A stretch of DNA of 64,000 nucleotides from contig NC_087246.1 in NCBI RefSeq assembly GCF_037042905.1, forward strand, positions 13,844,233-13,908,232, read 5' to 3'. A model generated the notes under the pieces. The model was not told the origin of the DNA. It made no database searches and was given only the letters and a program-made list of their open reading frames with translations. Each line of letters opens with the position of its first letter. The first letter of the stretch is position 1. This DNA comes from Lytechinus pictus (taxonomy: Eukaryota). Position numbers and translations under genes: made by a program. Below, one piece after another: positions 2,500 to 63,635 of the stretch.

Positions 2500-3244
2500 C
2501 TAAAATGAAACAGAACAGGAAGAGATGTATGAGTGCCATCAAAATAGAAATCCTTCCACAGAACATACGAGCGTTCACAGAAAATTCTATCTTGATTTGA
2601 TAAACAATACATAAATGCAGCTGTAAGATAGGATAACAGAAAAACTTTGCCAGTCAATCTCAAGTCAATAGAAATCTATGCCACAGGAAGTCTATGCACT
2701 TGGGGAAATTTTTACCTTCGTAAAAGGAAATTGGGATGTAAATTACACATATTACATTATCAGGTCTAAATACTGCCACTATCAACCATTATTTAACTTC
2801 TGAACAGTTGACTAGAGATATTAAAGGTTGACAACATATAAACTTAGCAAAAAGAAACTTTATACATGAATGGGTTCACTCAAATAGTAGGCCTACTGTT
2901 TGAATTTTACTCTTTCTAATTCTCAATATGCCCTATCTACTAAACCACTAAAATATCATTACCCTTTTATATAATTATTCATTTAATGACCATGCTCATA
3001 ATTATCATAATCCAGGGGCAGTGCTAGCACGGGGCAGCCAACGCTTATGAATTTCCAAGTAGTTTTTTTAAAAAGGTATTCAAAAACGGAAAGAAGGACA
3101 AAGATGAAGAGAGAAGAGAGTCAAAGGGACATGGAGTGTGTTGTGTAAGCCCTTGTTGCCCATTATTTTTGTTTGCTTCTATATTATTAACATGTGTGTC
3201 TATAAGAAAACTACAGATGTGACACCTATTAGTGTAAGACATAC

Positions 3245-3429
3245 CTCTGGAATGGGATACTGAGTTGGGTCTGGAGCTCCCTCTCTGCCAAAGTCTACCA
3301 TGGTGCCACACTTAGCAATGTCATTGACCCAGACACCCTCATAGACCTGACCTTTGTCCAAGTAGAAGAACTTTCCTGGTCCATTCTTCTTGTGATCCTT
3401 CCACGTGCCCTCGTAACGGTTCTCCGTCG
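3245..3429 (-). CDS. MORN3: MORN gene exon 4. ATENRYEGTWKDHKKNGPGKFFYLDKGQVYEGVWVNDIAKCGTMVDFGREGAPDPTQYPIPE.
   Basis: Acceptor ctcattcag|CGACGG and donor CCAGAG|gtatgt; 185 nt; phase-consistent with exon 3. Confidence 0.8.
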
Positions 3430-6403
3430 CTGAATGAGAGAAACCAAGAACAGACTTGCCAGATTAATCACCACTAGTTTTCCTTCAGAACAAGAGTGGT
3501 GTACATATAAGATTGAAATGGAAGATCTCCTCCATTGCTGACAAGTAATGACAAAAATGTTCAGTGTTGATCCTAATTACCACATTGAATCATTCACTTT
3601 TTTCAATAGCATTAACTTTATTGAAAAAAAAATACCGATTGTGACAAACTGAGAAGTACAAAATACAATATCTTTTCTTAACATGTAACCAGCAATACTT
3701 GGAAGTTTTAGACTAAATATAAGTCATAACCTTCCATAAAAAAAGGTGACAGACATTGAGATTTGTCTGCAAAAACCCGGTGGGCAATGCATCCGCAAGC
3801 ACCAGAAATTCAGCCTACCGCAAGAATTCTTGATGCTATGGCAGTACACAATCATGACATTTTTTTTTCATTGTATATATCTTGATATGTGTAGGACATT
3901 TATGTCTGTAGGCCTATTCATGTTTGAACAATTTACAAGAGTAGCTGTAATGGTGATTTTGGTTCTGAATCACAACCAAAGTTACTACATGTAATATTGA
4001 CTACCTTGAAACATATGATCTGATATCTTAAAACTATATATAAGATCAATAAACTGTAAAAGTATATCTTAATATCAGTCAGTCATTTAGATTATGCCCA
4101 TTGTTGCTTGAATAAAATGTATTAAAATTCCCAACCCTTTTTTCATATATATGCCAAACCACATTTAATACAAGAATGCATAGTGTAGCAACATATGCTG
4201 CTTATAATTAAATGACTGATGTCATATGCTGTATCAAATCAATTATATGAGTGTCCAATAAAAACGATTATTTACAATAATGTAAATAATTCCCATTTAC
4301 TACCAGATAAATTGCTGAAATACTAGAGGGCTTATTAAATGTAGTCTCTTGTTACAATATATTTTGTATTCACTATATCTCAGAAGCGAAATATCACAAC
4401 CAGGCCTCACAACAACTAACATATATTTTTCATGAAACAGAAAAGTTGAAATCATAATTAATAAAGACTGCCCCAGTTACAGATTTGTTGTTCTTAGCAG
4501 GAACTCCCAACTCTCTGTTCTTAGTGTGTGAAGGGTTGTGTTATCGTTGTATAAGCAGTAATGACAGAGCAATCTGGAAAATTGTAAACATGTTTATTCT
4601 CCTGTTGAATGCATTATTTTGTTTCCAGCAACCCTCTCTCTATCCCTGACCCAGACATCCTGGTTTACTGCACCTACTTTCCACATCCTCCAAATAATTT
4701 AAAGGACACATCAGTATAGCAAAGGTTACAAAATTTAAATTGAAATTGACCTCTTATACAGCATCTAAAAAAAAATGAAAAAAAAAAACAATGGGGGCTG
4801 AAGACGGAATTAACCTCCTAAATTAAAAAAAAAAAATAGCCCCTGTAAGTTACCATTTGGTTCAAATCAAACAGTACACAAATAACTTGAAATAAATGAA
4901 AATGGGAAAACTAGCCGCTGCACAGACAATACAATGTTTCACCCTGATAGAATTTTGTAATATAGGCTTTATAGCAATATCTTCGAAATAAAAACTGAAT
5001 GGGGTTGACTGTTTTTATAGACCATTATTAAATGACTCTGTACGAACAAGAAACTAAAAATTTCCAAGATGATAATACCTTCAAATTTTAAGCTGGGAAA
5101 TATGAAAATACTGGCTTTAAAAAATTCCTTACGTCAATTTGAATGTATATTTCTGGTATGAAATGGAATGTTTGTGAAACCATGCCATGTTTTGCCTCAC
5201 AGGACCAAGCTCAGTTACATTCAGGCTGCCTGCAATGTCAAAGGTGTACAGCTAAATCAATTCTATTGGGCAGATATTCTTACACAAGCAAGATATCACA
5301 GTATGAGACAGAGACAAACCATGCAGAGAACAATGGCAATAAAGATATTAAGCATACAGAGTACTTGTTTTACACAGTGTCAATGAGCAGCAATAGATTA
5401 ATAGTCTGACAAGAAATAGAGGTGAGGGGAGAAGAGAGGAGAGAAGAATGTTAGAGGGGCATATGTCTGAAAATATTCTGACCATGAAAAAAAGAACAGT
5501 AAGATGTTAAAACATCAGTATAATTCATCTCCTTTTCCTCTGTTTCTAATTTTGGTTGATTGATGGGGGACTTCCCAAGACCATTCAATATCAGACCATC
5601 ATTATAACTAATTCATGCGAATTTCAAACAATTAATACATAATAACAACAAATAAATAATAATTGTTTATTCATGTGTTATTGCAAGATGATCTGTCTAC
5701 CGTGATTGTTTAATGAATCTGGGTGGGGTTGATTGATTGTGATTGATTGTGGGTGAATGTGTGTTGGGAGATAGGGTGGATGGATGGATGTGTAGTGTGT
5801 ACTCCTCTAATGGGTCACAAGGTTTGCAAATGGTTCCAGGTTCCTCTTCTCTTTCTCATTTTAACTTGTAAATAACAATTTTTAATAAATTGCGTAAATA
5901 CGAACTGCCATTGTCATTCTTCTTTTTTTAGCTTATCATATGCAGCTGGTCATATTCTTATATCAGTTTTGATTTTTGAATTTGATGTAACTTTTTAACC
6001 TTGTCAGGACCTTGATATAAAACAGTGTTTTTATACTGATCTTGTGTTTTCCTGAATAAATATATTTCAATAAATGAAATAATAATAATAGCCAGTTATA
6101 GCGCTTTTCCCAATACGGGTTAAAGCACTTTCTAGCATATTATTACCCCAGCCATAAAGAAAATATAGATAGATTTATTAAAATGAAAAATAATGTTTTA
6201 TGATCACTAAAGTAACAAAGTGATGAATTAATAAAATATAACTTTACAAAACAAATACTGAATAGAATGAAAAATAAAGTACTGTACATAAACAAATAGG
6301 GAAATTACACTTGCAGATATTCACATCAGTTAGCAAATAAGCACATAAAAAAATTAAAACCAAAATTTATATACTAATATATGGTTTAAATAGAATAACC
6401 TAC

Positions 6404-6563
6404 CTAATCTGAGCATGCCCTGTCCATTCCTCTCATCATTGTACCACTCTCCCTCATATGTGCTTCCATCAGCAAAGTACATCCTACCCCACCCACTGCG
6501 TTTATCAGCATACCATTCTCCTTCATAATACTCTTCTGCTGAGTAAAAATGTGTTCCATAACC
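6404..6563 (-). CDS. MORN3: MORN gene exon 3. GYGTHFYSAEEYYEGEWYADKRSGWGRMYFADGSTYEGEWYNDERNGQGMLRL.
   Basis: Acceptor tgttcag|GGTTATGG and donor AGATTAG|gtaggt; 160 nt, phase 0 in, phase 1 out. Matches ORF 6354..6626(-). Confidence 0.8.
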
Positions 6564-7194
6564 CTGAACAACATTGGAAGAAGAAATATTAGAAATTAGT
6601 TTGCACGTAAAACTTGATTTTTGCATTTCATTTTTGCTTTTGAGAAATATTTACACAAGTTGATTCAATTTTATATATTTATTCATTTATAAATTTTTTC
6701 CTCATAAAAAGCAGGGTAGTCCGAGTGCCAGAGGCCTGCTTTACGAGGGAGCCTTGTTATAAAAACAATTCATATTTCAAACATTATACAATCACATTTA
6801 TAACATACACAATCAAATCAAACATCAAATATACACAATACAAAAAAGAGGGGGAAAAAATATATATGTGTATATGTATATACAGTATAAATTACACAAA
6901 CACAAATAAATAAGCTCACTTGGATTTTACTTTAAAATAGGAATTGAGGCAGAGCATTTAATACGTACAGATAACATGTTGAAAATTTTCAATGCTGTAT
7001 AGGAGAACAGCTGTTTTTTTATACTCCTTTCTTGGTTTTGCGAGATGTGATTTCTGCATTGAGAAGGATCTTGTAATGTAGAGTAATGATTAGTTCTCAG
7101 AGGCATGGTTTGCTTTAATTACCAGGACTCCAGGAGCAAGACCGTCCAGAATTTTATACAATCTGTTTTTAACAGATAGCAATTTCAAAGAATC

Positions 7195-7960
7195 CAACAA
7201 ACCCTGGGGTGATATTTTGATCATTGTCTTTTCTCCACATTTTCTCTTTTCTCAGAGATATGACAGAATCAGTATTCTGGTGGATGTCATAAGTTAACTT
7301 TTGTCATAAAAATCTTCTCTTAAGCGTGCACCAAAAATATGCGGTTCTTAAATGCACATAATCACAATATACAAGCAAATGATATGACAAAATTCATGAC
7401 ACAGTCCAGCACTTGTAGCAGTCATAAAATTTTGTCATATCTTTTAGTATCAATTCCCTGCCGACTATTAATGTCAAGCATACAATTCTATTAATTAGAT
7501 TACATTGTGGCATTAATTTCATTCATCTTCCATGACTATTTTCATAGATATTTTTTCATGCTACAATTAGTTAAGCCCTGCATATTAATTGTTTTCCCCT
7601 TTTTTCTATCTCTTCTAAAAATTCTTCACAGCTCTGTCTCTCATTCTAATTAAGCGCATCAATATAGACGCAGTTGTGTGATGCCAGCTACTGTATTGAA
7701 GATATGCCCCACTTGCCACCGGGTCTTCCTATTGATTAGAAGAACTCCCACTGGGAACTAATGGTGATTTTGATTGGTGCCTCTGAAAAGATGGGAATGA
7801 ACTTGGAGAGATATGACAAGGAAAAGACAATGTTCAGAATACCGATTTGTGACAGTATCATAGCGGTGTCATATCTCAGAGAGAAATAACAAAATTTATG
7901 ACAAAAGTTATGACAGTGTTCTAGAATACCACCCCTGGACTCTGCTATAATAATCTGCAT
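7195..7960. mobile_element. Probable foldback element with inverted ends that share the motifs cattgtcttttc, gagatatgaca and ttgtcataa
   Basis: 7213-7300 against the reverse complement of 7780-7950, imperfect. Confidence 0.35.
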
Positions 7961-8596
7961 CTAAAACCAAAAGACAAGATTTGTTTTGACACTTCTGTAT
8001 TCGCTGCAAATCTTTCACTTTTAATGATCCTGAGACAGTTGAACCTTATGTAAACATGTACACGTACAGTATATATTTCTTTTCTTTTTTTTTTTACTTG
8101 AAGAATATTCTATGATGGTAAAAAAAATGAAGATTTGAGATGGCATGATGTAATTTATAAATTTCTGAGATGTCGTTTTTCATTATCATATTCACTTGAT
8201 GATAATTCTTATTTAGTTGATTTCATCAATACTATTTTTTTGTGATAGTTAAAACGCAAACAATCAGTTTGATTGGTTCTCCAGAACTGACATATAAGAT
8301 TTAGATTAGAAAAATAATTTTCCTATTTTTCTGGGTATTCTTTTTTTCACTCCAGGTAACTTTACCAACTTCTGCAATTACATCTTATGCAGCTGTTGAT
8401 ATAGCTCTAGGGGGCCTTTTTTGATCAACTCTCACTCATCTAGAATCTATTCGGCCACATGCCACAGTTCCTATATTTCTTCTCTAGTCTTTTAATCTTA
8501 AATTTTTAGAGGAATTTCACAGAAAAAATATTTAAGGAAATATTTGACTCAAGAATCAAGTTAACATGCATGGTTTCCTGTTCTTAGAGCACTCAC

Positions 8597-8751
8597 GTGT
8601 CGTTTATCATTTTTCCAGCCACCAGAGTAGATTCTTTTGTAGCCTCCTCCCTCCATTGGGGTACTTAATGTTCCAAACCCGTTCCTCTTTCCGAACTTCC
8701 AATCTCCATCATATAAAGCTCCCGACTTCTTCCACTTGTAAGTTCCTTTGC
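8597..8751 (-). CDS. MORN3: MORN gene exon 2. GKGTYKWKKSGALYDGDWKFGKRNGFGTLSTPMEGGGYKRIYSGGWKNDKRH.
   Basis: Acceptor cattacag|GC and donor CGACAC|gtgagt on the minus strand. Phase 1 in, phase 0 out. MORN repeats match ORF 8561..8830(-). Confidence 0.8.
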
Positions 8752-9973
8752 CTGTAATGAAAGAAGCAATGTAATTACAATAAATGCAGATATATGGTTT
8801 CAGGGGTAAAAGAGAACTAATCTGGTACACATTTTAGTCTTGGATTAAATAAACAGCTCCAAGTTAGGATGGTTTGAAGAATGGTACATTCCCCCCATGG
8901 TTTAAATACCAGAGATCATTTATAGCATAAAGATACTCATGGTTTAATCATGCACAGGCAATGTTTGTTGTTCTTTTTTTGTATTAAAAGAAGTCTAGTA
9001 TTAGATTTCCTCCAATATTTATTTTATAGGTTGTTGTATGTCCAAATATGTTGTTGTATGTCCAAACAAGTTGCTTAAGTGGATAAGACGGTAATTTTGG
9101 GAAATTGCGATCAATACTTCATTAATAAAAAAAATTATCAGACAATTACAAAGCACATGTTATACTTGCAATTATTTACGCTAATTAATTTTAATGCACG
9201 ACTTTGGGGAAAATCTAGAGCAAAGGTTATTTTTTATAATCTGCTTACGTGTCTGGACAGGAATCCCAACCATACTTTATGCATTTCATTTGACAAAAAA
9301 CTTGTACTTTATGTATGGTGTGCCATAGTGTTTTCTCCAAAACATATTATGAACAATGTATAATGGAAGCATCATCTAACTTAAGCTCTATTCCCATTGT
9401 ATTAGGGCAAGGCCACCGTTTCTATTAGATATAGTAGAGTGCAAATTTCTTTATGACAGCACAATGGGGAATTCAAAAGGGCATCAAAAATTTATTAGGC
9501 CAATCATTTTAGAGGGGCATTGCCATTGAAGTCAGTCAACAGGGCATTACTGCCATGGGAGTGGCTAAGTTGGTATATAATTCACACTCTGCCATTTAAG
9601 ACGAGAAATACAACTTTACAAGTAAATATCATTTAATTTTAATAGGGTAGTCTGAAATAATAAGTGCAGCACAGAAGATCAAATACAATTGGGAAAAAAA
9701 CTATGTAACAGTAACATAAGACTTTTGGTTTTGTTCGTTTTTAAATTCTTTGCAATTTACAAGTTGATCATTACTGAAGTTGGGAGCAAACAATCAATCC
9801 AGAGCCTATCAGTATCACGTTTTTCCAATCTACATGTAGCCCCCCCCCCCAACGTTACTTATTTTTTACTTCAACTTGTACTAGAATCATAAAACCTTTG
9901 ACTTTTTTACTCTTAGTCTTAATAGTTTTGGTCTGCCTATATTAGTTTTTTTTTTTTTGAATCTCAGTCTCAC

Positions 9974-11263: not shown

Positions 11264-11498
11264 CACACTCTAAATTACAGGGATTTAAAACAAGTCCACA
11301 TGGACTGTAGTTAGGGACCAATCGAATTCCGGATTTAGTTTGAATCCTTAAGATTCATTTTTAAATCTCGAAAGATTTAAATTTAAATCATTTGAGATAT
11401 AAATTTAAGTCGTTAGGATTAAAACTAAATTCAGAAATCGATTGGTCCCTAGCTACAGTCCATCTGGACTTATTTTAAATCCCTGTAATTTAGAGTGC
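11264..11498. mobile_element. MITE of about 235 bp with terminal inverted repeats of about 60 bp (cacactctaaattacagggatttaaaacaagtccacatggactgtag...)
   Basis: 11264-11330 is the reverse complement of 11432-11498. Confidence 0.75.
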
Positions 11499-13235: not shown

Positions 13236-15730
13236 ATCATTTGGGTTACCTCGAGCGAAGTTCGTGCAGGCTCCACTCCACTACCGCTACACTACAGCTA
13301 CACTACACTCCACCTACCCGAACTTCGAGACGGTGAACCAGTTCGGATATGGATGGAAATCATGCTTATCGTAAATAACTTAATATCTTACTCTACACCC
13401 GTATTTCACTCCGTTTCCATCCTCCGGTTTATTTAATTGCTACCACCAAAGTTCCAAACAGATATCCGAACGGTTTCCGCCCGCGTGGACGGATAACGCC
13501 TTAGTTTAACGGTTTTCATTTTTCGGGTTCGGGTATCCGTGGACACTGATTCACCACTTTCCTGTCACAAAAACTCATTAAATTTAGTAAGACTCACCAA
13601 AAAATTTATAAGTTTTAGACTTTTAGTCGCCAATATAATCACCAATATCAGTTAATCTTCTTCGGTAATAATATATTCCCGCCGAAAACCATCGTTTTTA
13701 TATCAGTTTTGAAACATGACCTGTCTTATATCAGTTTTGGAGCATGACCGTCCGTGAATGGAGTAAAGTTCCATTCTGACAACGATGGCGATTTTACTAT
13801 GGTGTCGCTTAAGATCGTTTTTCTTTCCCGTCTTATGTTTTGATGATTTTAAATGCGTAACTCATAGTATATTTTCTTACCTCGACTTTCAATGCGAGTG
13901 AAGAATGAAGATAATTTGAAACCATTTAAGCGTCAAATAAATGTTGATCGGTTACTCAGGTGTGTCATGTTGTTTCTTGTAATTTATTCATCAAATGCAA
14001 AATGAATTCTACTTTTCTCACAGCAACTTTGGTTACCATGATTAGTTTTGAAACTATGAAAAGTTGAAAACGTCGAATGAATGTTGATTGCGTGTGTCAT
14101 GTTGTTTCTTGTAATTTATTCATCAAATGCAAAATGAATTTTACTTTTTCTCACAGCAACTTTGGTTACAAATGAAGATGATTATTTTTCAAACTATGAA
14201 AAGTTGAAAACGTCGAATAAATGTTGATTGCGTGTGTCATGTTGTTTTTGTGATTTGATAATGGCGGACTTTGTGATGAATGATAATGAGAGTGAAACTG
14301 AAATGAATGACGATGATGATGAGTGATGGCTAGTGAAAATGATTTTAAATAATTATCAAGATTGGTGAAGATGATAGCAATGAATGATGATGAGAATTAT
14401 GAAAGAATGATAATTGTCAATTGAAAATCTCTTTCATGAATTAATATTCAATATATAAATTACAAAACACACATTTTCCTTTCTTTCAGTTTAAATGGCA
14501 TATCCACTATAAATTTTGATATCCATCATCACGTAAACAACAATACTTAAAAGGCGGTATCGTGCCAGAAAAAAGGTTTATGATGTGCGCCCGCCGAGTA
14601 TGTGGTCGGTTGTGAATCGACGTGTTTTGCAGTAAAACTTACTGGTGATGAATGTAAGTGATTAGTTACTGATACTGTGATTAAATCTTGTCTTTAATCT
14701 TTGTTAGAAGTGTGATTATGTTTCAGAAGTTGAGAAATGAGAAGCTTGGCTATAATTTGGGGAATGGGGAGAAACCCGACATGAAAATATTCCAAGTACG
14801 ATCCCATTTGAAGGTGTAGCGAGTGTAATGTGACCAAATATATATCGGACGATTCACTCCAGACACGTCCAGCCAGGACAGCACGTGCGTGAGCTGAATG
14901 ATGTAGGCCTGTCTGGTTTTAGACTTTTAGTAATAGTAGACTCGCACTTACACTCGCCTCTGTCAAATTCATTGCATCTTATTTCATTCGATCGGAACTA
15001 AAAAATAAACACACATACTCTCGCAACCATTAAATGGGATCGTAACTAGGCCTGACTTGTATAACTCAAATAATAGTCATTTACTAATAGCTTACACAGT
15101 CATACGATCTACATTTGTAGCCGTAGCCTCACGCTAACTCACATTAGTCAAATTCAATTGCAAAACAGATTCAACCCAAAATATTCAGCTTCTCGTAATT
15201 TTGTGGTTTTCAGAAATATTTTACCGGTATTAGCGCACGCTGACTCTCGCCATCATCGGATAGGTTCAAAACTCAAATATAACTGAAAATCTTAAATATA
15301 ACTCAAATAAGTGCAAATGGATATTTATTATTATTTTTTATATTTCAGGGTAAAATTTCGGATACCCGTCCGCCGTCCGGTTTTCAGTGTCGGGTATCCG
15401 AATATTGAAATATCCGTTTCAAGTCAGGCCTACTCCGGTTATCCTCAAAATTGGTGATTTTGGGCCAGTATCTTTTTCCTCACACGTATTATTCACGGCC
15501 GATTTCTAAACATCGCATGCGGGTGTAGAGTAAGATATTAAGTTATTCATCTTTCTCGTTATATTTTTTTCTTAAATTTTTACGATAAACATGTTTCCAT
15601 CCCACCTTTGTGACTCGATATATCCGAACTGGTTCACTGTCTCGAAGTTCGGGTGGGTGGAGTGTAGTGTAGCGGTAGTGAAGTGGAGTGGAGCCTGCAC
15701 GAACTTCGCTCGAGGTAGTGCACGCTCCAC
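13236..15730. mobile_element. Non-autonomous DNA-transposon-like element of about 2.5 kb. It has TIRs of about 200 bp (ctacctcgagcgaagttcgtgcaggctccactcc...ccgtatttcactccgt.tccatcctc), subterminal inverted GGATACCCG/CGGGTATCC motifs, and an internal tandem repeat.
   Basis: 13236-13440 is the reverse complement of 15480-15730. Subterminal motifs lie at 13455-13545 and 15355-15420. Confidence 0.7.
13958..14262. repeat. Internal tandem repeat, about 2.3 copies of a unit of about 135 bp (gtgtgtcatgttgtttcttgtaatttattcatcaaatgcaaaatgaatt...)
   Basis: Direct repeats at 13958-14091, 14092-14233 and a partial copy from 14234. Confidence 0.8.
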
Positions 15731-16230
15731 TTCACTACCGCGACACTACACTCCACCTACCCGAACTTCGGGATGGTGAACTCGATCGGATATTCCAAGT
15801 GACAAAGGTGGGATGGAAATGTTATTTATTGTAAAATTTATAGAAAAAAAATATAACGAGAAAGAAAAATAGTTTAATTTCTTACTCTTCACCCGTATTT
15901 CACTCCGTGTCCATCCTCTGGTTATCCTCAAAATTGGTGATTTTTGGCAAGTATCTTTTTCCTCACACATAAAATCACCAATTTTGAGGATAACCGGAGG
16001 ATGGACACGGAGTGAAATACGGGTGAAGAGTAAGAAATTAATCTATTTTTTATTTCTCGTTATATTTTTCAAAATTTTTTTCTATAATTTTTACAATGAA
16101 TAACATTTCCATCCCACCTTTGTCACTTGGAATATCCGATCGAGTTTACCGTCCCGAAGTTCGGGTTGGTGGAGTGTAGTGTAGCGGTAGTGAAGTGGAG
16201 TGGAGCCTGCACGAACTTCGCTCGAGGTAG
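15717..16230. mobile_element. Compact foldback copy of the same TIR family, two arms of about 250 bp meeting at a perfect palindrome centred near 15960. It abuts the right TIR of the 13236-15730 element.
   Basis: 15717-15960 is the reverse complement of 15960-16230. Its terminal sequence is shared with 13236-13300. Confidence 0.7.
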
Positions 16231-17520
16231 ATTGGGGTAGACAGCTGGCAGCCGTCTGTTTCGAGGATTTTTTAAAACATTTTTTTTTTCTCCTCGTGCA
16301 CAAACGGCTCGTGATCGTGCAGCTGCCATTAGGGGATTGACAAAGCAAATTCCCCCAACGGGGCTCATTGATTTGTGTCTTTCATAAAAATTAAAAAAGA
16401 ACTGGACCAAAATAAAGATTATTATTCCTTTTTGGCTTGAATAAGCTCTAAAACGGGAAAAATAAACTTAAAAGGACAATAACAGTGAATTACTTCGGCT
16501 GTCGCGCAACTTCAGTCTTCTCTTCCTTGGTTTATCCGAACTTAATACATAATCATATGGCCATTGAGTCCCTGTACAGATCGAGTTACTCGATGCATGC
16601 AATAATAAGTAACAATTTGAATATTTGAACTGATTTTCTTACTCTTATTTCTTGTAAATATTCTCATTATCATTACCCCAAAAGTAAGTATCTCAAGCCT
16701 CACTAGGAATTAAGCCCTAGCCGAGGCTTTAGTCAGTAAATGTAAAATTCTGCCACCGTGTAACACTAACGACGTAAGTTAAAACTGGCAACGCCTCCCT
16801 TGGCTCGGTCTGTGGGATTTTGAAGCTATGCACACTTTATTTATTTTGGCTTTCGTGCAAAAATATTGCATTTCCTGTGCATTAATTTCACAAATATGTT
16901 CATGATTGTAGGATAAAATAGACAAGATGAATAAATAAAATTTAAATGCAAAATTCCAAGTTGTTGTTTTTATTTGCATTCTGTTGCGGCCTCTAGAAAA
17001 CCTGAATAGGAATCGTTTGTCACAATGCAGTTTGCTGTCACAGTTCCACACACAAAGTGAACATTTTGCATTTGAAACAGATGCGCATTGTTTAAGTGGT
17101 CCATAGCTTCATTCAGCCTTAGGACCCCGCACCATAAAACTTTTAGTCGTTGGGATCCAACAGATTATTAGAAAGAATCTACTGAATTAAATTCTTCTAA
17201 ATAAGAAGTTGAAGGATGACGGGGAGGAGGAGAAGAAGAAATGGGATCTACAAGTACATTGTACACTTGCTATTCTTTGCAAGAGTTTTATGTTACAATT
17301 AAACATTTAGATCTATTTCTTTTCCCCCACAAAGTTATGTACAGTACATGCTAAAAGAAGTTGGAAGAAATTTTAAGACAAGTTTGTAAAATCAGTAGTA
17401 TCTAAATGTTTTTTTTTTCCAATGAAAAATATGATTTTGCAAGGCTTTAGGGTAAATCAGATTAAAAAAAATACATGTATGTCAAAGAAAGGGCACATCT
17501 TGTTTGTATGGCAGTTTTTG

Positions 17521-18618
17521 TCTCACCTGCATAGCAGTGTGAGACTATAGGCGCCGCTTTTCCGACGGCGGCGGCGGCGTCAACATCAAATCTTAACCTA
17601 AGGTTAAGTTTTTGAAATGACAGCATAACTTAGCAAGTATATGGACCTAGTTCATGAAACTTGGCCATAAGGTTAATCAAGTATTACTGAACATCCTGCC
17701 TGAGATTCATGTCACATGACCAAGGTCAAAGGTGATTTAGAGTCAATGAACTTAGACCATGTTGGGGGAATCAACATCAAAATCTTAACCTAAGGTTAAG
17801 TTTTTGAAATGTCATCATAACTTAAAAATGTATGGACCTAGTTCATGAAACTTGGACATAAGGTTAATCAAGTATCACTGAACATCCTGCATGAGTTTCA
17901 CGTCACATGACCAAGGTCAAAGGTCATTTAGGGTCAATGAACTTTGGCCAAATTGGGGGTATCTGTTGAATTACCATCATAACTTTGAAATTTTATGGAT
18001 CTGATTTATGAAACTTAGACATAATAGTAATCAAGTATCACTGAACATCCTGTGCAAGTTTCAGGTCACATGATTAAGGTCAAAGGTCATTTAGGGTCAA
18101 TGATCTTTGGCCAAATTGGGTGTATTTGTTGAATTACCATCATTACTTTGAAAGTATATTGGTCTAGTTCATTAAACTTGGACATATAAGAGTAATCAAG
18201 TATCACTGAACATCCTGTGCGCATTTCAGGTCACATGACCAAGGTTAAAGGTCAATGAACTTTGGGCGAATGGGGGTATCTGTTGAATTACCATCATAAC
18301 TTTGAAAGTTTATGGATCTGATTCATGAAAGTTGGACATAAGAGTAATCAAGTATCACTGCACATCCTGTGCGAGTTTCAGGTCACATGATCAAGGTCAA
18401 AGGTCATATAAGGTCAATGAACTTTGGCCAAATTGGGGGTATTTGTTGAATTACCATCATATCTCTGTAAGTGTATTGGTCTAGTTCATAAAACGTGGAC
18501 ATAAGAGTAACCAAGTATCACTGAACATCTTGTGCGAGTTATAGTAGGTTTCAAAGTCAGCACTGCTGCTATATTGAATCGCGTGATGCAGGTGAGACGG
18601 CCAGAGGCATTCCACTTG
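17521..18618 (+). mobile_element. TIR-bounded element (termini gtctcacctgca...tgcaggtgagac) carrying an internal satellite-like array of 5-6 units of about 170-190 bp
   Basis: Units recur with ggtcaaaggtcatttagggtcaatgaactttggccaaattgggggtat and atcaagtatcactgaacatcctg. A second copy lies in inverse orientation at 62830-63610. Confidence 0.7.
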
Positions 18619-18837
18619 TTTTTTTCTTAACTTAAGTGTGATAATGAATTTCATTTTTTTTTAAACATAATTCATAAGTGGGAAAAAGATACAATTTTAT
18701 TAAACAGTCTTTACACTACAGTCTTTTGCTTTTTCTCTAAGGTTTGGTTTGATATAGGAAGGAAATATAAAATATCTATAAATCTGGTATCTAAGCAAAG
18801 CCTACATCTTTTATAACCTGCTCATCAAACGCTGATG

Positions 18838-31169: not shown

Positions 31170-31443
31170 GTAAGTTGCCAATGATAACAGTGCTTTGTGG
31201 CTACTACAGGGACTCTGTTGGTTTAATGGATATATTCGAATTTCAATTAATATAGACTACTTTGAGCTTAGGTTTATAGTGTGTGATAGGGTTTTTAATC
31301 AGAATAAATATGAGGACTATGATTCATGTTTGAGATTAGGTGTCATATTTGTCTTCATGTGCAGATTTTCTATTGGAGCAATTACCACTAGAGAAAACCT
31401 TCCTACCAATTGTCAAAACACAATTCTACATATTCTTTACCAG

Positions 31444-32485
31444 GTGTTATCAGCCATACCAGCGGCTATGAGAAACAGAAATACATGGCAGCGGTAAGTG
31501 TGTTACAATCAGATGACCCTGAAGACATTCAGCTCTTACCACCAGAAGAACGGGACAGTCTACTATCTAGTCCGGAGAAGAATGACAGCAGAGAAGAGAA
31601 CAAGAGACTGAAGGATGAATGGGATGACGATGATGATTGGGATGATGAAGAGGATACAGAGGAGAAGGTTGATAAGAAGAAGGTCACAGGAAGAATGGAT
31701 GCCTCGGATGAAGAAACCGATGATTCTGATGGAGATTTTGATGATGAAGATGATACAGAGAAGGAGATTGATAAGAAGAAGGTCACAGGAAAGATGGATG
31801 CTGCTGATGATGAAACCGATGATTCTGATGGTGATTGGGACGATGAAGATGATGAGGAAGAAGAAGAAGTTGTGGAACTTCTGGCAGAAATCAAAGAAAC
31901 TGAAAAAAAAGCCAAACTTGCTGCAAACCAAGCAAGTAAAGATGCAGAGAAAAATATACCCTCTGGTAAGACTGCTGATAAGGACAGCAAAGAATCAGAA
32001 GACAGCGACTTTGACTTTGACAATGATGATGAAGAAGAAGTTGAGTTTATGAATAAAAAACAGAGCAATGAAGCTCTGAAATCAGCCATGATAGTTAATA
32101 ATATCTCAGGAAATGTGAAATGTGTTGAAAATAATGCTTCCAAAAATACTGCCAATAGTACCAAGGTGCTAAAACAAGGTTCTGTTGAGAAGGACAATAT
32201 CTTGAAAGGCTCCCCCAAAGAACCTGTGACAAGAAAAACCTCTGTTGACAAAAAAGGCCTGTCTAGAACAACTTCCAGTGATTCTCTAGGTGCAGTGATC
32301 CCAGCGAATGTTTCAGTAGATGGGACTGAGCATGGGGCCAAAAAGGATTTCACAAAGGGAAGGAAGGTTGAGACTGAGATACCAGTAGAGGAGGAGAGTC
32401 CCAGGCGAGGAGATGTGAAGCCAACAAGAAGTGAGAGCAGTAGAAGTTCTGGGAGTGAGAAAGAAGAAAAGAAGAAGAAAGGAGG
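31444..32485 (+). CDS. Large gene exon 8 (1042 nt). A highly acidic, disordered region with a tandem 40-aa repeat (EEKVDKKKVTGRMDASDEETDDSDGDFDDEDDT and EKEIDKKKVTGKMDAADDETDDSDGDWDDEDDE), then a K/S-rich segment.
   Basis: Acceptor ttctttaccag|GT and a strong donor GGAGG|gtaaga. An in-frame TAA (32487-32489) lies inside the donor consensus, so the unspliced read stops there (ORF 31410..32489). Splicing continues in frame into exon 9. Confidence 0.7.
31655..31894 (+). repeat. Coding tandem duplication (2 x about 120 bp) inside exon 8
   Basis: Near-identical 120-bp units at 31655-31774 and 31775-31894, each encoding a K-rich then D/E-rich 40-aa unit. Confidence 0.8.
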
Positions 32486-32819
32486 GTAAGAAAACATGTC
32501 AATACGTTATGAAAGTCTCTTGATTTTTCACCATTGCGTTATAATAGTAACTTCCAATTCCAAAGACACATGCTGTAAACATCGTTTACTGGTAGACGAT
32601 GAACACAAAAAAAGGTGAGGAAAAAGAAGAATCCTTTATCAATCATTTAACCATTTTAGAAATCTATAGATATAAAGTTTGTTGAATTTAATGTATCTTT
32701 TTTCTTTTACCTGTTTTTCATCACTGAAGAGATGCTTTATTAATCCAACTTTTTTAGTCTAAATCTCACTATCGAAAGAAAAAGACTATTTTGAATGTGT
32801 ATGATTCTTGTTCATGTAG

Positions 32820-33062: not shown

Positions 33063-33320
33063 AGTTCTGTTATAAGGCGACCGCACACCTTACGATTGGT
33101 TTGTGACCCGATTTTAGAATAAAATGTAGTAGAATTTGATGCTAATATTGAGACTTGGAATATCTTACTGTGTAATGTTCTAAATCATCGTACGAATACC
33201 TATGTTCAAATCTGTGACTATGCTATCATCCTTCTTAGAATAAAAGCGAATTTAATATCTAGTCGTAATGACGTCATAGCAGTCGTACGAGTGGTTACGA
33301 TTTGAAAATAATTTGGCCTT
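33063..33320 (+). repeat. Dispersed repeat, copy 1 (ccgcacaccttacgattggtttgtgacccgattttagaataaaatgtagtagaatttgatgct.atattgagac.tgga..atcttactgtgtaatgttctaaatca..gtacgaatacctatgttcaaatctg)
   Basis: About 90% identical to 48893-49030. Confidence 0.7.
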
Positions 33321-38249: not shown

Positions 38250-38662
38250 GGCCCGAATTCATAAAGGTGGTTTTTAAAACCATCGGTTGAACCCATGGTT
38301 TATGCAGATTTTCTGTTTAAATTACCTCTAATTAACCGCGTATATAAAAATTATCTAATGCTGATGCACGCTTTTGACACATTGTGCCAAATTGACAGAT
38401 GTTGCCATTTGTAAGTATGCTATTTTATTTATGAGTCCACTGTTTAAAGAGTGGACTCATTAATTCAAAACAGTGGACTCCTGAATAAAATAGCGTACTT
38501 AAACATGGCAATAGGCGTCAATTTGGTGCACTGTGTCAAAAGCGAGCATCAGCATTGGACATTTTTTAATAAGCGCGGTAATTAAGTTTAATTTATACAG
38601 GAATCTGCATAAACCATGAGTTCAACCGATGGTTTTCAAAACCACCTTTGTGAATTTGGGCC
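38250..38662. mobile_element. Foldback MITE with arms of about 190 bp and a very short loop
   Basis: 38250-38440 is the reverse complement of 38475-38662 (ggcccgaattcataaaggtggtttttaaaaccatcggttgaacccatggtttatgcagatt...). Confidence 0.8.
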
Positions 38663-48380: not shown

Positions 48381-48884
48381 GTAAGTGTTTGTATTTTTGT
48401 TTATATCCTTGTGTCATTTCAGTTAGGATTGCTTGATTGTGATTTGGGCTATTACTTAAAATAATCAACTTTTTTTGTCCATACGACCTCCATTTTTCTT
48501 TATTCTTTATTTCATAGCCATTCAAGCCATGATAATTTGAGTATATTTGCAAACTTTCAAATGAACTAGAAAACTGAGAGAAATCATTTCAGCAAGGTCA
48601 TACATAGATGGGTCAGATTTACGCAAATTCCCAATCGTTAAAAGTGATGATAATCCTTCTTCTCCTCCCCCTCTTATATTGGTCTAACTGGAAAAGTATC
48701 TGTCCTTTGAATGCTAATCAGCAAATGGTGTTTTTTTGTAGGGGTCCATAAGATTCTCTTTGAGAATAAATCTTTGCCTTTAACCTTATGTGTGACTAAT
48801 TAATCATTTGATCTCATGACAGACTTGTCTTGGTCAATATAAGGAAAGCATAATAACCTGTTTAAATAAGAATGTAAAGTATTA

Positions 48885-49060
48885 AGGCCTCCGCACACCT
48901 TATGATTGGTCTGCGACCTGATTTTTGAATAAAACGTAGTCGAATTTGATGCTCATATTGAGACATGGATATCATACTGTGTAATGTTCTAAATCACTGT
49001 ACGAATACCTATGTTCAAATCTGGGACTATGCTTTGATCCTTATGTTAAGTTTACCTAAT
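48885..49060 (+). repeat. Dispersed repeat, copy 2 (3'-truncated), in another intron of the same gene
   Basis: Aligned with 33069-33210. Confidence 0.7.
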
Positions 49061-50168: not shown

Positions 50169-51796
50169 GTATCAATGAAATTAGAAACTTACATCAAGCC
50201 TAGGGTCACTTTATAAGGTTACACATGGTTTGCAAACATATGGAGTGCCAAAAAAAGATGTTACATGTTTCCTCAATTCAAAGTCTTTTCATTAATCATC
50301 TATATGGTGTGGCATGAAATGTACTTAAATTGTAATTAAAAGTAAAAATGTCAGTCTATGTGATTATACTACATGTATACATAGATTATAATTCAATGTA
50401 AGCTGATTGGGACATTACACTTGACTTATTTCAACTTGATTAAACTTACTGGCTCTTATTTCTACTATTTTTTATTTCTTCCCTTGTATTATTCAGTGAA
50501 TTGTCAGGCAGCGAAGAATTCTGCTAGTTCTCAACTCAATTTCTGCTACCAAGCAGCGAGATGGACAACTCACTTTTTATTCCAGTATTGGAAGTCAGCA
50601 TCAGGAAGCAATTACTAGTCATCACATTTTGTCATTGTTACTTGTATTGCAGATTTGTTATTGCTACGGTTGATACATTCTATTCATTATTACTGATCTT
50701 ATTTGCCTTCAACCTTGAGAGGATGGGGGGGGGCATAAAGTCCAATTCACCCCCCCCCCCCCTCGCATGTCACCCTATTATTCTGAAATGCGCAGGGATA
50801 ATCCTGTATGTGCAACTTCACAAAATTCTTCTTTGAAGTCTTGTGTAGCTTTTGAAGTCAAGTAAATATGGATCCATTTCTTTAGCACAGCGAATATGAA
50901 AGCACTCTACTGCACCCATTGACCTCACCTTAGTTGAGTGTTGCATAATGTAGATGAATTTCTTGCTGAAGGAAATATAACACTACGACTGGAATTCAAA
51001 CCCATGGCCCACATACTTGGTCCATAGTTATTATACGCAACAAAATATTTCTCCTGTCTCTGCAATATTTTTTGTTGCCTCATATTCCCATTGACAAAAA
51101 GACACATAATTTTTCTCAGCAATTAATGTTTGTACAACATGAAACATGCATCCAAAGGGTATGCTTTTATTATTTTCATTGAATTATAATTTATGAAAAC
51201 TTGTATACTTGCACTGTTTTCTTTACGCTCAGCTTCTAAACGTTATTAATATGAAAAATGAACTAGTATTATGCAATATTTTGGTATTCCTGTCTTGTGT
51301 GCTTGGACTTTGGTTTTGATTCGTATTCTGTAATGCACCTTGAATTGTATATTCTATTTCATTTTCAGTCCATCCACTGCCTAATATTGCACTCAAATAA
51401 TGAAAAAAAATTATATTTATCCAGATTTATATTTTGATGGAATTTCATTTTATATGTGTAGTACAGAAATAGCATTTTCTTTAGCTAGGATTACACATTT
51501 CTGCCTCACTCAAAGTTCTGCCATGAAGCCTGTGTGTGAGGACTGTTAATATCTCAAATCAAACAAGAAAAGTTGGTCTTTATGGTCAAATTGAATCTGT
51601 ACAGGAATTTTAGCTGAATACTGGCCCACTAGTATGATTAAGTCTAGTAGTGTAATAAAATGATTGCAGTACAGTATTCAGTGAGTACATCCCTCATAAA
51701 AAACATCAACTTTTCAGTGCAGTTCTTCACCAAAATCTTGAACCAAAAAAATAATTAAAGAATAGAGGAGACATGAGAAGATGTATCATCTTTTAA

Positions 51797-52400
51797 AGGT
51801 CAAGTCCACCCCAGAAAATTTTGATTTGAATAAATAGAGAAAAATCAAACTAGCAGAATGCTGAAAATCTCATCAAAATCGGATGTAGAATAAGAAAGTT
51901 ATGGCATTTTAAAGTTTCCCTTATTTTTCACAAAACATTGATATTCACAACTCGGTGACATCCAGATGAGTCGGTCAATGATGTCCATCACTCACTATTT
52001 CTTTTGTTTTTTATTGTTTGAATTATACAATATTTCATTTTTTACAGATTTGACAATAAGGACCAACTTGACTGAACCATATATGATTAAATAATGCTAA
52101 TCCCACATGTTCAGGGAGGAATTAATTGTTGTTTCACTTGACAATGATTAAAAAATTAGAATATTTCATATAACAAAATACAAAAGAAATAGTGAGTGGG
52201 TGACGTCATCAGTCTCATTTGCATACGGACCAGGATGTGCATATAACTGTTTTGTGAAATTAAGCGAAACTTTAAAATGTCATAACTTTCTTATTTTACA
52301 TCCGATTATGATGAAATTTTCAGTTTTATGTTTGTTGGATTTTTCTCTTTTAATTCAAATCAACTTTTTGTCGGGGTGGACTTGTCCTTTAATGATAATG
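51797..52400. mobile_element. Foldback element with arms of about 215 bp separated by a spacer of about 170 bp
   Basis: 51797-52017 is the reverse complement of 52185-52400 (aaaggtcaagtccaccccagaaaattttgatttgaa... against ...ttcaaatcaactttttgtcggggtggacttgtccttt). Confidence 0.75.
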
Positions 52401-60481: not shown

Positions 60482-60604
60482 CTCTTCTCCAATCTTTAAT
60501 GTTGATCCCAGACTGAAATCATTATCTTTGCCTTCTTCTTGTACATCAATATGCTGATAAATACCATCATCTACTTTCCATGTAACAGTTAAGTGATCAG
60601 CTCC
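60482..60604 (-). CDS. SUPT6H: SPT6 exon ([41 protein letters not shown])
   Basis: Acceptor ttaatag|GGAGCTG and donor GAAGAG|gttggt; 123 nt, phase 0 in and out. A partial duplicate lies at 60641-60752. Confidence 0.8.
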
Positions 60605-60640
60605 CTATTAAATCAAATTAAATCAAATCAAATCATTTAA

Positions 60641-60752
60641 TGTTGATCCCAGACTGAAATCATTATCTTTACCTTCTTCTTGTACATCAATATGCTGATA
60701 AATACCATCATCTACCTTCCATGTCACTGTCAAATGATCAGCTCCCTAATAA
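60641..60752 (-). pseudogene. SUPT6H: Partial tandem duplicate of the previous SPT6 exon, in the upstream intron. The acceptor is intact, the last 13 nt and the donor are missing, and every coding difference is synonymous.
   Basis: ggatttattag|GGAGCTGATCATTTGACAGTGACATGGAAGGTAGAT... is colinear with the exon at 60482-60604. There are six nucleotide differences, all synonymous. The copy is followed by a (TGATTT)n-like tract and then the true exon's acceptor. Confidence 0.6.
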
Positions 60753-61193
60753 ATCCAATTAAGTCAATCAAATCATTGAAAGTTAATTTTTAAATATAAT
60801 CATTCTGAATTGTTGTGTAGGAAGATTTTTTGGTGTATTTTGTGTACTTCTGTGTTGTTTCTTTTGAACAAAAATCCTCGCAAATTCTGATTTTTGTTTT
60901 ACCATTAAATTTCACAAACACATCCACATCATCATATATAATCTGGCCTGCCTACACACAATGTACGCATTCTACACTTTAATCCATAGAGATGTATTCG
61001 TGCTAGTGAGATGTATTCAAACCAGTTGCTGTGTGAGGTACCCACGATACTGAGGAAACTCCCTGACTTCACATAGCAAAAATACACATTTTAAATTTAA
61101 AAAAAAACACTACCTTCAAGTACATTTAGCATTAGAGAAAAATTTATATTGCTTATCTATCCACAAGAATAATTCATATTTGCAGAAATTTAC

Positions 61194-62659: not shown

Positions 62660-62829
62660 CTGAGTGAGAGAGATTGTAATTGGGAAATGATCAAAGTCTA
62701 GTCTGCAAAACATTGTTCAGAGAACAGGGACTTCTCAACTGCTGCTTTCTGACTCTAAGGAAAAAACATCAGTTTGAATTTATCAATTTCTTGCGACGAA
62801 GAGCTTATCCCCACTGAATATCGTAATCT

Positions 62830-63610
62830 AACAAGTGGAATGCCTCTGGCGGTCTCACTTGCCTCACGAGATTCAATATAGCAGCAGTGCTGACTTTGAA
62901 AACTACTATAACTTGCACAAGATGTTCAGTGATACTTGGTTACTCTTATGTACACGTTCTATGAACTAGACCAATACACTTACACAGATATGATGGTAAT
63001 TCATCAGAGACCCCCATTATGGCCAAAGTTCATTGACCTTTGACCTTGGTCATGTGACCTGAAATGCGCACAGGATGTTCAGTGATACTTGATTACTATT
63101 ATGTCCAAGTTTCATGAATCAGATCCATAAACTTTCAAAGTTATGATGGTAATTCAACAGATACCCCCAATTCGGCCAAAGTTCATTGACCCTAAATGAC
63201 CTTTGACCTTGGTCATGTGACGTGAAACTCGTGCAGGATGTTCAGTGATACTTTATTAACCTTATGTCCAAATTTCATGAACTAGGTCCATATATTTTCT
63301 AAGTTATGATGACATTTCAAAAACTTAACCTTAAGTTAAGATTTTGATGTTGATTCCCCCAACATGGTCCAAGTTCATTGACCCTAAATGACCTTTGACC
63401 TCGGTCATGTGACATGAAACTCAGGCAGGATGTTCAGTAATACTTGATTGACCTTATGGCCAAGTTTCATGAACTAGGTCCATATACTTTCTAAGTAATG
63501 TTGTCATTTCAAAAACTTAACCTTCGGTTAAGATTTGGTGTTGACGCCGCCGCCGCCGCCGCCGTCGAAAAAGCGGCGCCTATAGTCTCACTCTGCTATG
63601 CAGGTGAGAC
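62830..63610 (-). mobile_element. Second, shorter copy of the satellite-carrying TIR element, inverted relative to 17521-18618, inside a SUPT6H intron
   Basis: 62830-62900 is the reverse complement of 18545-18618. 63540-63610 (gacgccgccgccgccgccgtcgaaaaagcggcgcctatagtctcac) is the reverse complement of 17521-17590. Confidence 0.75.
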
Positions 63611-63635
63611 AAAAACAACAAACAATCTGTCTTAC

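Follow-up and report, generated by a model that had tools for sequence, protein, structure and literature searches.

Two blocks of related sequence that lie about 44 kb apart in inverted orientation within the 64,000-nucleotide stretch of DNA analysed here (the window) are, with high probability, insertions of one non-autonomous HINE family, DINE-1/Pearl-like, presumably Helentron-mobilized and belonging to the Helitron2 group. The element is non-coding and is known here from three copies: copy 1 (1,106 bp; 17515..18620, plus strand), copy 2 (786 bp; 62830..63615, minus strand), which sits in sense orientation within an intron of SUPT6H, and a related element on a Tara Oceans scaffold, L006. 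We base the HINE/Helitron2 identification on subterminal, asymmetric repeats, the lack of a target-site duplication, a 5′ hairpin, a microsatellite and T-rich insertion sites. This classification explains the shared ends of the copies, the missing target duplication, the variable number of internal units and their satellite-like content. The two window copies are independent insertions that have diverged by about 5%, and their inverted arrangement is incidental.

Two copies with common ends

A sequence-only reading of the window had proposed that a mobile element occurs here in two inverted copies, which have their termini in common and contain an array built of two kinds of unit, and alignment of the two copies confirms each of these points. 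The plus strand of 17.5–18.6 kb matches the minus strand of 62.8–63.6 kb far beyond chance: aligned module by module, the copies are identical at 595 of 626 positions (95.05%, JC distance 0.051), and a repeat search recovers inverted arms between them of 265 and 266 nt at 95% identity and of 211 nt at 93%. The boundaries given in that reading, 17521–18618 and 62830–63610, were right to within a few bases and are refined here to 17515–18620 and 62830–63615 by a three-way alignment of copy 1, copy 2 and the third copy from the unrelated contig L006. Homology stops sharply at common bases at both ends, and beyond TTTTT...CACTTGTT the flanking sequences bear no relation to each other. An 8-nt similarity upstream of both window copies, TTGTTTGT, raised the possibility of a longer 5′ end; this was discarded, as L006 has nothing in common with the two copies ahead of the run of five T residues. 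The 5′ subterminal inverted repeats of the window copies are identical at 13/13 positions and their last 60 bp at 56/60, values that place copy 1 and copy 2 in one HINE family and subfamily under the criteria of Thomas et al. 2014.

A sensitive BLAST search with copy 1 found no further copies elsewhere in the 64-kb window. The longest open reading frame that overlaps copy 1 encodes 57 aa and extends across its flank; there is no longer frame in the element, and no long transposon reading frame occurs in the window. As neither tRNA genes nor Rfam families were found anywhere in the window, a SINE or tRNA origin of the element was rejected.

Terminal signals and insertion sites

The element begins with TTTTTGTCTC... 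and ends with ...CCACTTGTT. Its first five bases, as delimited by alignment, are the T5 run (17515..17519, plus strand in copy 1), which is found in all three copies known and is followed immediately by the 13-nt 5′ subterminal inverted repeat GTCTCACCTGCAT (17520..17532, plus strand). The exact reverse complement of this repeat, ATGCAGGTGAGAC, forms the 3′ subterminal inverted repeat at 18586..18598 (plus strand), 21–22 nt inside the 3′ end, so that the two repeats of copy 1 are complementary at 13/13 positions; exact matches to GTCTCACCTGCAT within the window are confined to element ends. Copy 2 retains an exact 5′ repeat (63598..63610, minus strand) and a degenerate 3′ repeat, AGGCAAGTGAGAC, with two mismatches (62852..62864, minus strand).

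Six bases separate the 13-mer of copy 1 from a second, internal inverted repeat, GTGAGAC (17539..17545, plus strand), which can base-pair with the initial 7 nt of the 5′ subterminal repeat and is followed by the conserved stretch TATAGGCGCCGCTTTTCCGA. The resulting 5′ hairpin, GTCTCAC...GTGAGAC, has a predicted DNA folding energy of −20 kcal/mol and stands out clearly from shuffled sequences (z = −5.2 in copy 1 and z = −5.7 in copy 2). The right flank of copy 1 (18547..18620, plus strand) comprises the 3′ subterminal repeat, a short GC palindrome and a conserved tail, with ATGCAGGTGAGAC followed by GGCCAGAGGCATTCCACTTGTT, which runs to 18620. Directly past the 3′ repeat lies the mini-palindrome GCC-AGA-GGC (18600..18608, plus strand), which reads CGCC-AGG-GGCG in L006 and may be considered a weak candidate for a 3′ hairpin; folds of the 3′ end contain a GC stem of 3–4 bp and do not stand out clearly from shuffled sequences, with z-scores of −0.5 to −2.6 in the window copies and 0.08 in L006. 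An extended 3′ stem, CAGGTG/CACTTG, is predicted in the window copies; it was rejected as it is not retained in L006.

None of the three insertions is flanked by a target-site duplication, and neither copy 2 nor L006 is flanked by any direct repeat of at least 2 nt. All three have a T-run at the 5′ boundary and a T at the 3′ boundary, and their 5′ flanks are T-rich. Published accounts describe HINEs as having subterminal inverted repeats of 12–15 bp, placed a few nucleotides inside the 5′ end, and a palindrome near the 3′ end. [quoted passage not shown] Helitron2 elements are defined by asymmetric terminal inverted repeats of 8–15 bp, of which the 5′ one lies 0–2 bp from the end and forms a 5′ hairpin and the 3′ one lies 20–30 bp from the 3′ end, together with a preference for a 5′ T and compensatory changes between the repeats (PMC3627910). 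Several features by which HINEs are recognized are present in this element: it is non-coding, its subterminal repeats are asymmetric, it has a 5′ hairpin, it lies in T-rich DNA with no target-site duplication, and it contains a microsatellite and internal repeats of fixed orientation.

The description of the sequence as a TIR element, taken in the usual sense, does not hold, because its repeats are subterminal and asymmetric, with the 3′ one 21–22 nt inside the end, and no target-site duplication accompanies them. The same observations bear on the possibility that it is a classical cut-and-paste MITE, with terminal repeats recognized by a DDE transposase and a target-site duplication created on insertion. 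A perfect 13-nt inverted repeat near both ends, the small size and the lack of coding capacity would suit such an element, and the original descriptions of related bivalve elements treated them as MITEs with a putative AA/TT duplication (PMC3879986). However, the 3′ repeat is not terminal, and the 21–22 nt beyond it are conserved in copy 1, copy 2 and L006; neither copy 2 nor L006 has a duplication of at least 2 nt; the Helitron2/HINE definition is matched by the 5′ hairpin, the microsatellite and the asymmetry of the repeats; and such ‘MITEs’ have since been reclassified as HINEs (PMC4067079). The asymmetric ends thus largely refute a MITE, which we regard as very unlikely. A canonical Helitron1 was also considered, as elements of that type share a presumed rolling-circle mobilization, the absence of target-site duplications and a 3′ subterminal hairpin as an end signal. 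It was rejected: Helitron1 elements have 5′-TC and CTRR-3′ ends, insert between A and T and possess neither a 5′ hairpin nor inverted repeats, whereas this element has a 5′ hairpin and ends that differ from 5′-TC...CTRR-3′.

An internal array of two unit subtypes

Between the flanks lies a tandem array that directly adjoins a (CGG/GGC)n microsatellite. In copy 1 the microsatellite closes the left flank with four repeats (17566..17579, plus strand), in copy 2 it has six (63545..63564, minus strand) and in L006 five. We split the arrays into units at conserved anchors. Copy 1 starts with two type-A units of 191 and 189 bp (17580..17959, plus strand), each with the junction palindrome CTTAACCTAAGGTTAAG, and continues with type-B units of 163, 154 and 163 bp and a shortened last unit of about 107 bp (17960..18546, plus strand); its type-B stretch has a dimeric higher-order pattern with a period of 317. 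Copy 2 has two type-A units of 191 and 190 bp (63164..63544, minus strand) followed by type-B sequence that comprises one 153-bp hybrid unit and a truncated last unit (62905..63163, minus strand). Each copy therefore has 2 type-A units, with 3.7 type-B units in copy 1 and 1.7 in copy 2, for totals of 5.7 and 3.7. Tandem Repeats Finder reports periods of 191, 163 and 317 in copy 1 and 192 in copy 2. The sequence-only reading was right about the two unit subtypes and less so about their size, which it put at 170–190 bp; the A units measure 189–191 bp and the B units 153–163 bp.

The two subtypes differ by a single module: type A has the sequence of type B with a further 27 nt inserted where units join, and this insert contains the palindrome CTTAACC-N-AAGGTTAAG. 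The hybrid B unit of copy 2 resembles the copy-1 units B3 and B5 in its 5′ part (92/95) and B4, including its 10-bp deletion, in its 3′ part, from which it follows that the arrays differ by unequal exchange or slippage and not by simple truncation. The orientation of the array relative to the flanks is identical in copy 1, copy 2 and L006. With only 3.7 and 5.7 units, housed within a transposon, the arrays are not classical satellite DNA, which consists of long homogeneous arrays.

Within the unit, a perfect DR1 motif, AGGTCAAAGGTCA, is followed by TTTA-GGGTCA. Allowing at most one mismatch, AGGTCAAAGGTCA has 8 occurrences in the two copies and 10 in the window as a whole, where 0.09 would be expected, and the unit consensuses of the window and of L006 agree fully over an 18-nt box, CAAGGTCAAAGGTCATTT, despite an overall unit identity of only 65%. 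This raises a slim possibility that the arrays act as a transposon-borne enhancer, with each unit contributing a perfect, predicted DR1 nuclear-receptor response element. The excess over expectation, the retention of the 18-nt box in L006 and the position of copy 1, which precedes the first coding exon of a large plus-strand gene by about 1.7 kb, would all be in keeping with such a role. If it were true, genes close to HINE insertions, such as the one downstream of copy 1, could come under the control of an HNF4/RXR/COUP-type regulatory network. However, satellite and HINE units often contain conserved boxes, for which repeat turnover or transposition is the usual explanation (PMC3879986), and the DR1 box is itself an internal GGTCA micro-repeat, of which a 10-bp slippage variant exists. 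We think it improbable that the family disperses arrays of a conserved, putative nuclear-receptor response element.

A related element in a marine contig

To find relatives beyond the window, a 50-aa open frame of the array was translated and searched against a representative library of 1.84 billion proteins. The only significant match, P0241 (E = 3.8e-14), contains four repeated stretches and clearly represents the translation of a tandem array, not a true protein; three other candidates from the search, P0242–P0244, were set aside as unrelated repetitive proteins. P0241 derives from L006, a 1,270-bp Tara Oceans scaffold that contains a complete related element. From its 5′ end this element reads TTTTT, GTCTCGCCTGCGT, AGCAAGA, GCGAGA, TATAGGCGCCGCTATTCCGA and (CGG)5. 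Its array opens with a 162-bp unit that lacks the palindrome, continues with two units of 179–180 bp that carry the palindrome CTTAACCAAAGGTTAAG, and closes with two units of 153–154 bp without it and a truncated, degenerate last unit; the 3′ part reads ...GCGCG, ATGCAGGCGAGAC, CGCCAGGGGCGTTCCACTTGTT. The order of long and then short unit subtypes is kept.

The similarity among the three copies starts exactly at the T5 run and stops exactly at CACTTGTT, in three unrelated contexts. Between the window copies and L006 the flanks are roughly 85–90% conserved, as read off the alignments, and the units are 60–69% identical. L006 shares 11 of the 13 bases of the subterminal repeat, and these are non-contiguous, so it represents a related but separate family or subfamily. 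From the window copies to L006, one and the same position has changed at three sites, A to G in the 5′ subterminal repeat, T to C in its hairpin partner and T to C in the 3′ subterminal repeat, a pattern of covariation that amounts to a single difference between two lineages. The 5′ hairpin is thereby kept as GTCTCGC...GCGAGA, with an A:T pair replaced by G:C. This coordinated change at three pairing sites is what L006 adds to the picture, and it fits the published model of Helitron2 end recognition; L006 also shows that diverged genomes have retained the family together with its ordered array of two unit subtypes.

L006 likewise weighs on a simpler account, in which a short satellite array was copied locally by inverted segmental duplication or gene conversion and no transposition took place. 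In favour of this account, the 64-kb window has no more than two visible copies, which lie 44 kb from each other. Yet their homology ends abruptly at the same bases between unrelated flanks, the ends carry conserved transposon-like signals, and a third element with the same ends occurs in a different context in the Tara Oceans contig. The same module order and ends between unrelated flanks in L006 imply a mobile family and not a local duplication, for which we see hardly any room.

Scans with DNA patterns for the unit core, the subterminal repeats or the tail gave no matches in viral contigs. Similar scans returned one 20-mer match without extended similarity (L001) in JGI metagenomes, and only four 18-mer matches, taken as chance, in prokaryote genomes.

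Relation to known elements

A close architectural parallel is Cg_HINE of the bivalve C. gigas, which has the same order of modules (5′ subterminal inverted repeat, complementary inverted repeat, microsatellite, array, 3′ subterminal inverted repeat and palindrome) and central units with consensus lengths of 138–181 bp, with two consecutive arrays of related units in some families (PMC7492417). Fixed array orientation, insertion at TT or oligo-T without target-site duplication, and copies in introns and near genes are further points in common (PMC7492417). The differences lie in the host, here probably an echinoderm and not a bivalve, in the microsatellite, which is of the GTCY type in Cg_HINE and (GGC)n here, and in the 3′ palindrome, which is weaker here than in Cg_HINE. 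In Pearl (CvA, CvE and CvG), DTC84 of Donax trunculus and MgE of Mytilus, likewise, cassettes bearing short inverted repeats flank an array of no more than about six units of roughly 160 bp; a microsatellite adjoins one end of this array, a palindrome lies near the unit junction, and the unit variants occur in a fixed order but in varying copy number (PMC3879986). Unlike in these Pearl-type elements, the junction palindrome is here confined to the longer unit subtype.

DINE-1/HINE elements of Drosophila, a mite and a mosquito, which depend on Helentrons, also have 13-nt subterminal repeats, an inverted repeat 3–22 nt from the 5′ one, a microsatellite, optional tandem repeats, T runs at their boundaries and TT or T-rich targets that are not modified (PMC4067079); in the mite families the 3′ repeat lies 38–60 nt from the 3′ end, compared with 21–22 nt here (PMC4067079). 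With Helitron2 the element shares the asymmetric repeats, the 5′ hairpin, the position of the 3′ repeat, the 5′-terminal T and compensatory changes (PMC3627910). It departs from the Helitron2 definition in that a clear 3′ hairpin is expected and only a 3–4-bp stem is present, and its assignment is one of structure, the element being non-coding and the group being defined by RepHel phylogeny. Tsp elements of Strongylocentrotus purpuratus, to judge from their description where they are cited (PMC4067079, PMC3879986), appear to be the same kind of element in echinoderms.

By analogy with these elements, we infer that mobilization could proceed through a Helentron Rep-helicase and a single-stranded intermediate; Helentron proteins have been reported in echinoderms (PMC4067079). 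The cis signals would be the T-run, the 13-nt 5′ subterminal repeat and the 21-nt 3′ tail in the conserved ends of the cassette, and the 13-nt repeat could pair either with the nearby internal repeat, as the 5′ hairpin, or with the 3′ subterminal repeat. The Rep-helicase(-endonuclease) of an autonomous Helentron elsewhere in the genome would nick the 5′ end, unwind the strand and recognize the 3′ end through the subterminal repeat and hairpin signals, and the single-stranded copy would insert into T-rich DNA without a target duplication. The number of units would change by unequal exchange or slippage within the array, which would explain both the 5.7 versus 3.7 units and the hybrid unit of copy 2.

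Elements of this kind are well known in marine invertebrates and insects, and this member appears not to match a published sequence. K-mers of its subterminal repeats and units are absent from the searched parts of the supplements on Cg_HINE and the C. gigas satellitome, and a search of full-text literature with twelve such k-mers returned only unrelated papers, mostly on PPAR/DR1 oligonucleotides. The suggestion that a small transposon may seed satellite DNA agrees with a documented theme for this class and is not a new idea: satellite-like arrays in such elements, and the seeding or dispersal of satellite DNA by them, have been documented (PMC7492417, PMC8268682, PMC11136912, PMC12628747, PMC3879986), with DINE-1, Pearl, DTC84 and Cg_HINE as examples of array carriage and satellite seeding. 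Our findings leave current understanding unchanged. They are of value for annotation, as such elements are routinely mislabelled as MITEs, satellites or ‘unknown’ repeats.

Gene context of the two copies

The placement of copy 2 within a SUPT6H intron, proposed from the sequence, is borne out by the flanking exons, which align to residues 1164–1521 of human SPT6 (E = 5e-158). The host intron is 976 nt long (62660..63635, minus strand), and its junction, ...ELNE|VWSHFD, is gapless relative to human SPT6. Copy 2 begins 20 nt past the GT donor and fills about 80% of this intron. One copy thus occupies most of an intron of an essential gene and the other sits just upstream of another gene, the large plus-strand gene whose coding exons span about 20.3–50.2 kb. 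That gene is indeed bracketed in full by the two copies, as had been stated, but the interval also contains the 3′ exons of SUPT6H (57.0–62.66 kb, minus strand) and a duplicated pseudo-exon at 60.5–60.8 kb.

An inverted pair in this position had been put forward as a substrate for inversion. Recurrent or polymorphic inversion of the 44 kb by non-allelic homologous recombination, which would flip the large gene, is the least probable of the readings weighed here, unsupported and disfavoured: about 0.8 kb of inverted sequence at 95% identity can in principle support such recombination, but the window itself has no sign of an inverted allele, two copies of an abundant transposon type are unremarkable in a repeat-rich 64 kb, and the inversion would split SUPT6H, detaching the exons that encode SPT6 from about residue 1214 through its C terminus. 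Since copy 2 lies within the SUPT6H intron, SPT6 would be truncated after about residue 1213, losing the tandem SH2 domain along with the rest of its S1 domain. In organisms where this has been tested, the elongation factor SPT6 is essential, so an inverted allele should be strongly deleterious and strongly selected against. A viable inversion polymorphism between the copies is less likely even than the DR1-array proposal, as SUPT6H would be broken by it. Many other repeats and foldback structures occur in the window.

Several observations concern the genes themselves. SAM-like and PDZ-like stretches can be read by eye in the large plus-strand gene; a Pfam search of eight isolated open reading frames, five of them exon frames of this gene, returned no domain match, and the long exon frame at 31410–32489 has no relatives at E ≤ 1e-10 in the protein collection. 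The SPT6 fragments match members of the same collection at no more than 64% identity and point to no taxon. The host is probably an echinoderm whose own proteins are absent from that collection, to judge from the exons of MORN3 at 3.2–8.8 kb: their best named matches are from a sea cucumber (86%) and a feather star (84%), followed by amphioxus, acorn worm and scallop at 78–80%.

Conserved motifs of the array units

Every full unit of the central array, in both copies of the HINE-like element, contains by sequence match a DR1 nuclear-receptor response element, AGGTCAAAGGTCA. Copies 1 and 2 hold 8 such matches, six perfect and two with one mismatch, and the whole window holds 10, compared with 0.09 expected; in six of the eight, the response element is followed by TTTA-GGGTCA. 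The matches lie within 17723-18406 in copy 1, 63034-63401 in copy 2 and 230-915 in L006, the Tara Oceans contig that carries a complete related element. An 18-nt box, CAAGGTCAAAGGTCATTT, is identical between the unit consensuses of the window and of the Tara element, with an overall unit identity of 65%.

What sets the longer unit subtype apart from the shorter is an additional 27 nt at the unit junction, and this insert holds the palindrome CTTAACC-N-AAGGTTAAG. This palindrome occurs at 17592-17608 and 17784-17800 in copy 1 and at 63532-63516 and 63340-63324 in copy 2, and is conserved in the Tara element (L006, approximately 279-296 and 458-476). A similar palindrome at the junction of DTC84 units has been proposed as a hotspot for changes in array length (PMC3879986).

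The array of the Tara element has also entered a protein collection. On L006 (TARA_SAMEA2731664_METAG-scaffold_27604), a public metagenome gene call at 268-957 yields a 229-amino-acid ‘protein’, P0241, which is the translated tandem array of the transposon; the DNA is that of an animal and was present in a plankton sample. P0241 exemplifies how repeats give rise to spurious entries in large protein collections.

Copy 2 and a partial exon duplication in SUPT6H

Copy 2 lies in sense orientation within a SUPT6H intron (62660-63635) that would measure approximately 190 nt without it. Because the element begins 20 nt past the 5′ splice site, its strong hairpin and GC-rich microsatellite adjoin the SUPT6H donor.

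Elsewhere in the same gene, a tandem duplication of 141 bp, 91% identical, is found at 60488-60787 (minus strand), with a duplicated segment comprising the 3′ end of an intron and the first approximately 108 nt of the exon that encodes the SH2 domain. In the upstream copy an acceptor-like site (attag|GGAGC) persists, a donor is lacking and the reading frame meets a stop codon. In this essential gene, that copy would function as a decoy 3′ splice site or pseudo-exon.

Other repeats and coding features

A repeat search of the window returned palindromic or foldback MITE-like structures at 106-657, 11266-11497, 15517-16230 (two overlapping palindromes), 38250-38662 and 51793-52392, with arms of approximately 115-300 nt at 75-89% identity. 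A 70-nt segment common to 106-657 and 51793-52392 suggests that these two belong to one family. Two introns of the large plus-strand gene share a dispersed direct repeat of approximately 160 bp (33073-33233 and 48883-49042, 89% identical), probably another short interspersed element. A repeat-rich intergenic block contains a tandem repeat with 2.2 copies of a 132-140-bp unit (13928-14256), close to dispersed or inverted repeat pieces (13247-13430 and 15620-15923); inspection of these regions by eye revealed no obvious HINE-like ends.

An in-frame tandem repeat in the large plus-strand gene (31629-31853; 99 bp, 2.3 copies, 86%) codes for an acidic, D/E-rich segment inside a 359-amino-acid exon open reading frame, for which no relatives were detectable in the protein collection. 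Protein matches also place exons of MORN3 (MORN repeat-containing protein 3) on the minus strand at approximately 3203-8833, the best named matches being from the echinoderms Apostichopus japonicus (86%) and Anneissia japonica (84%).
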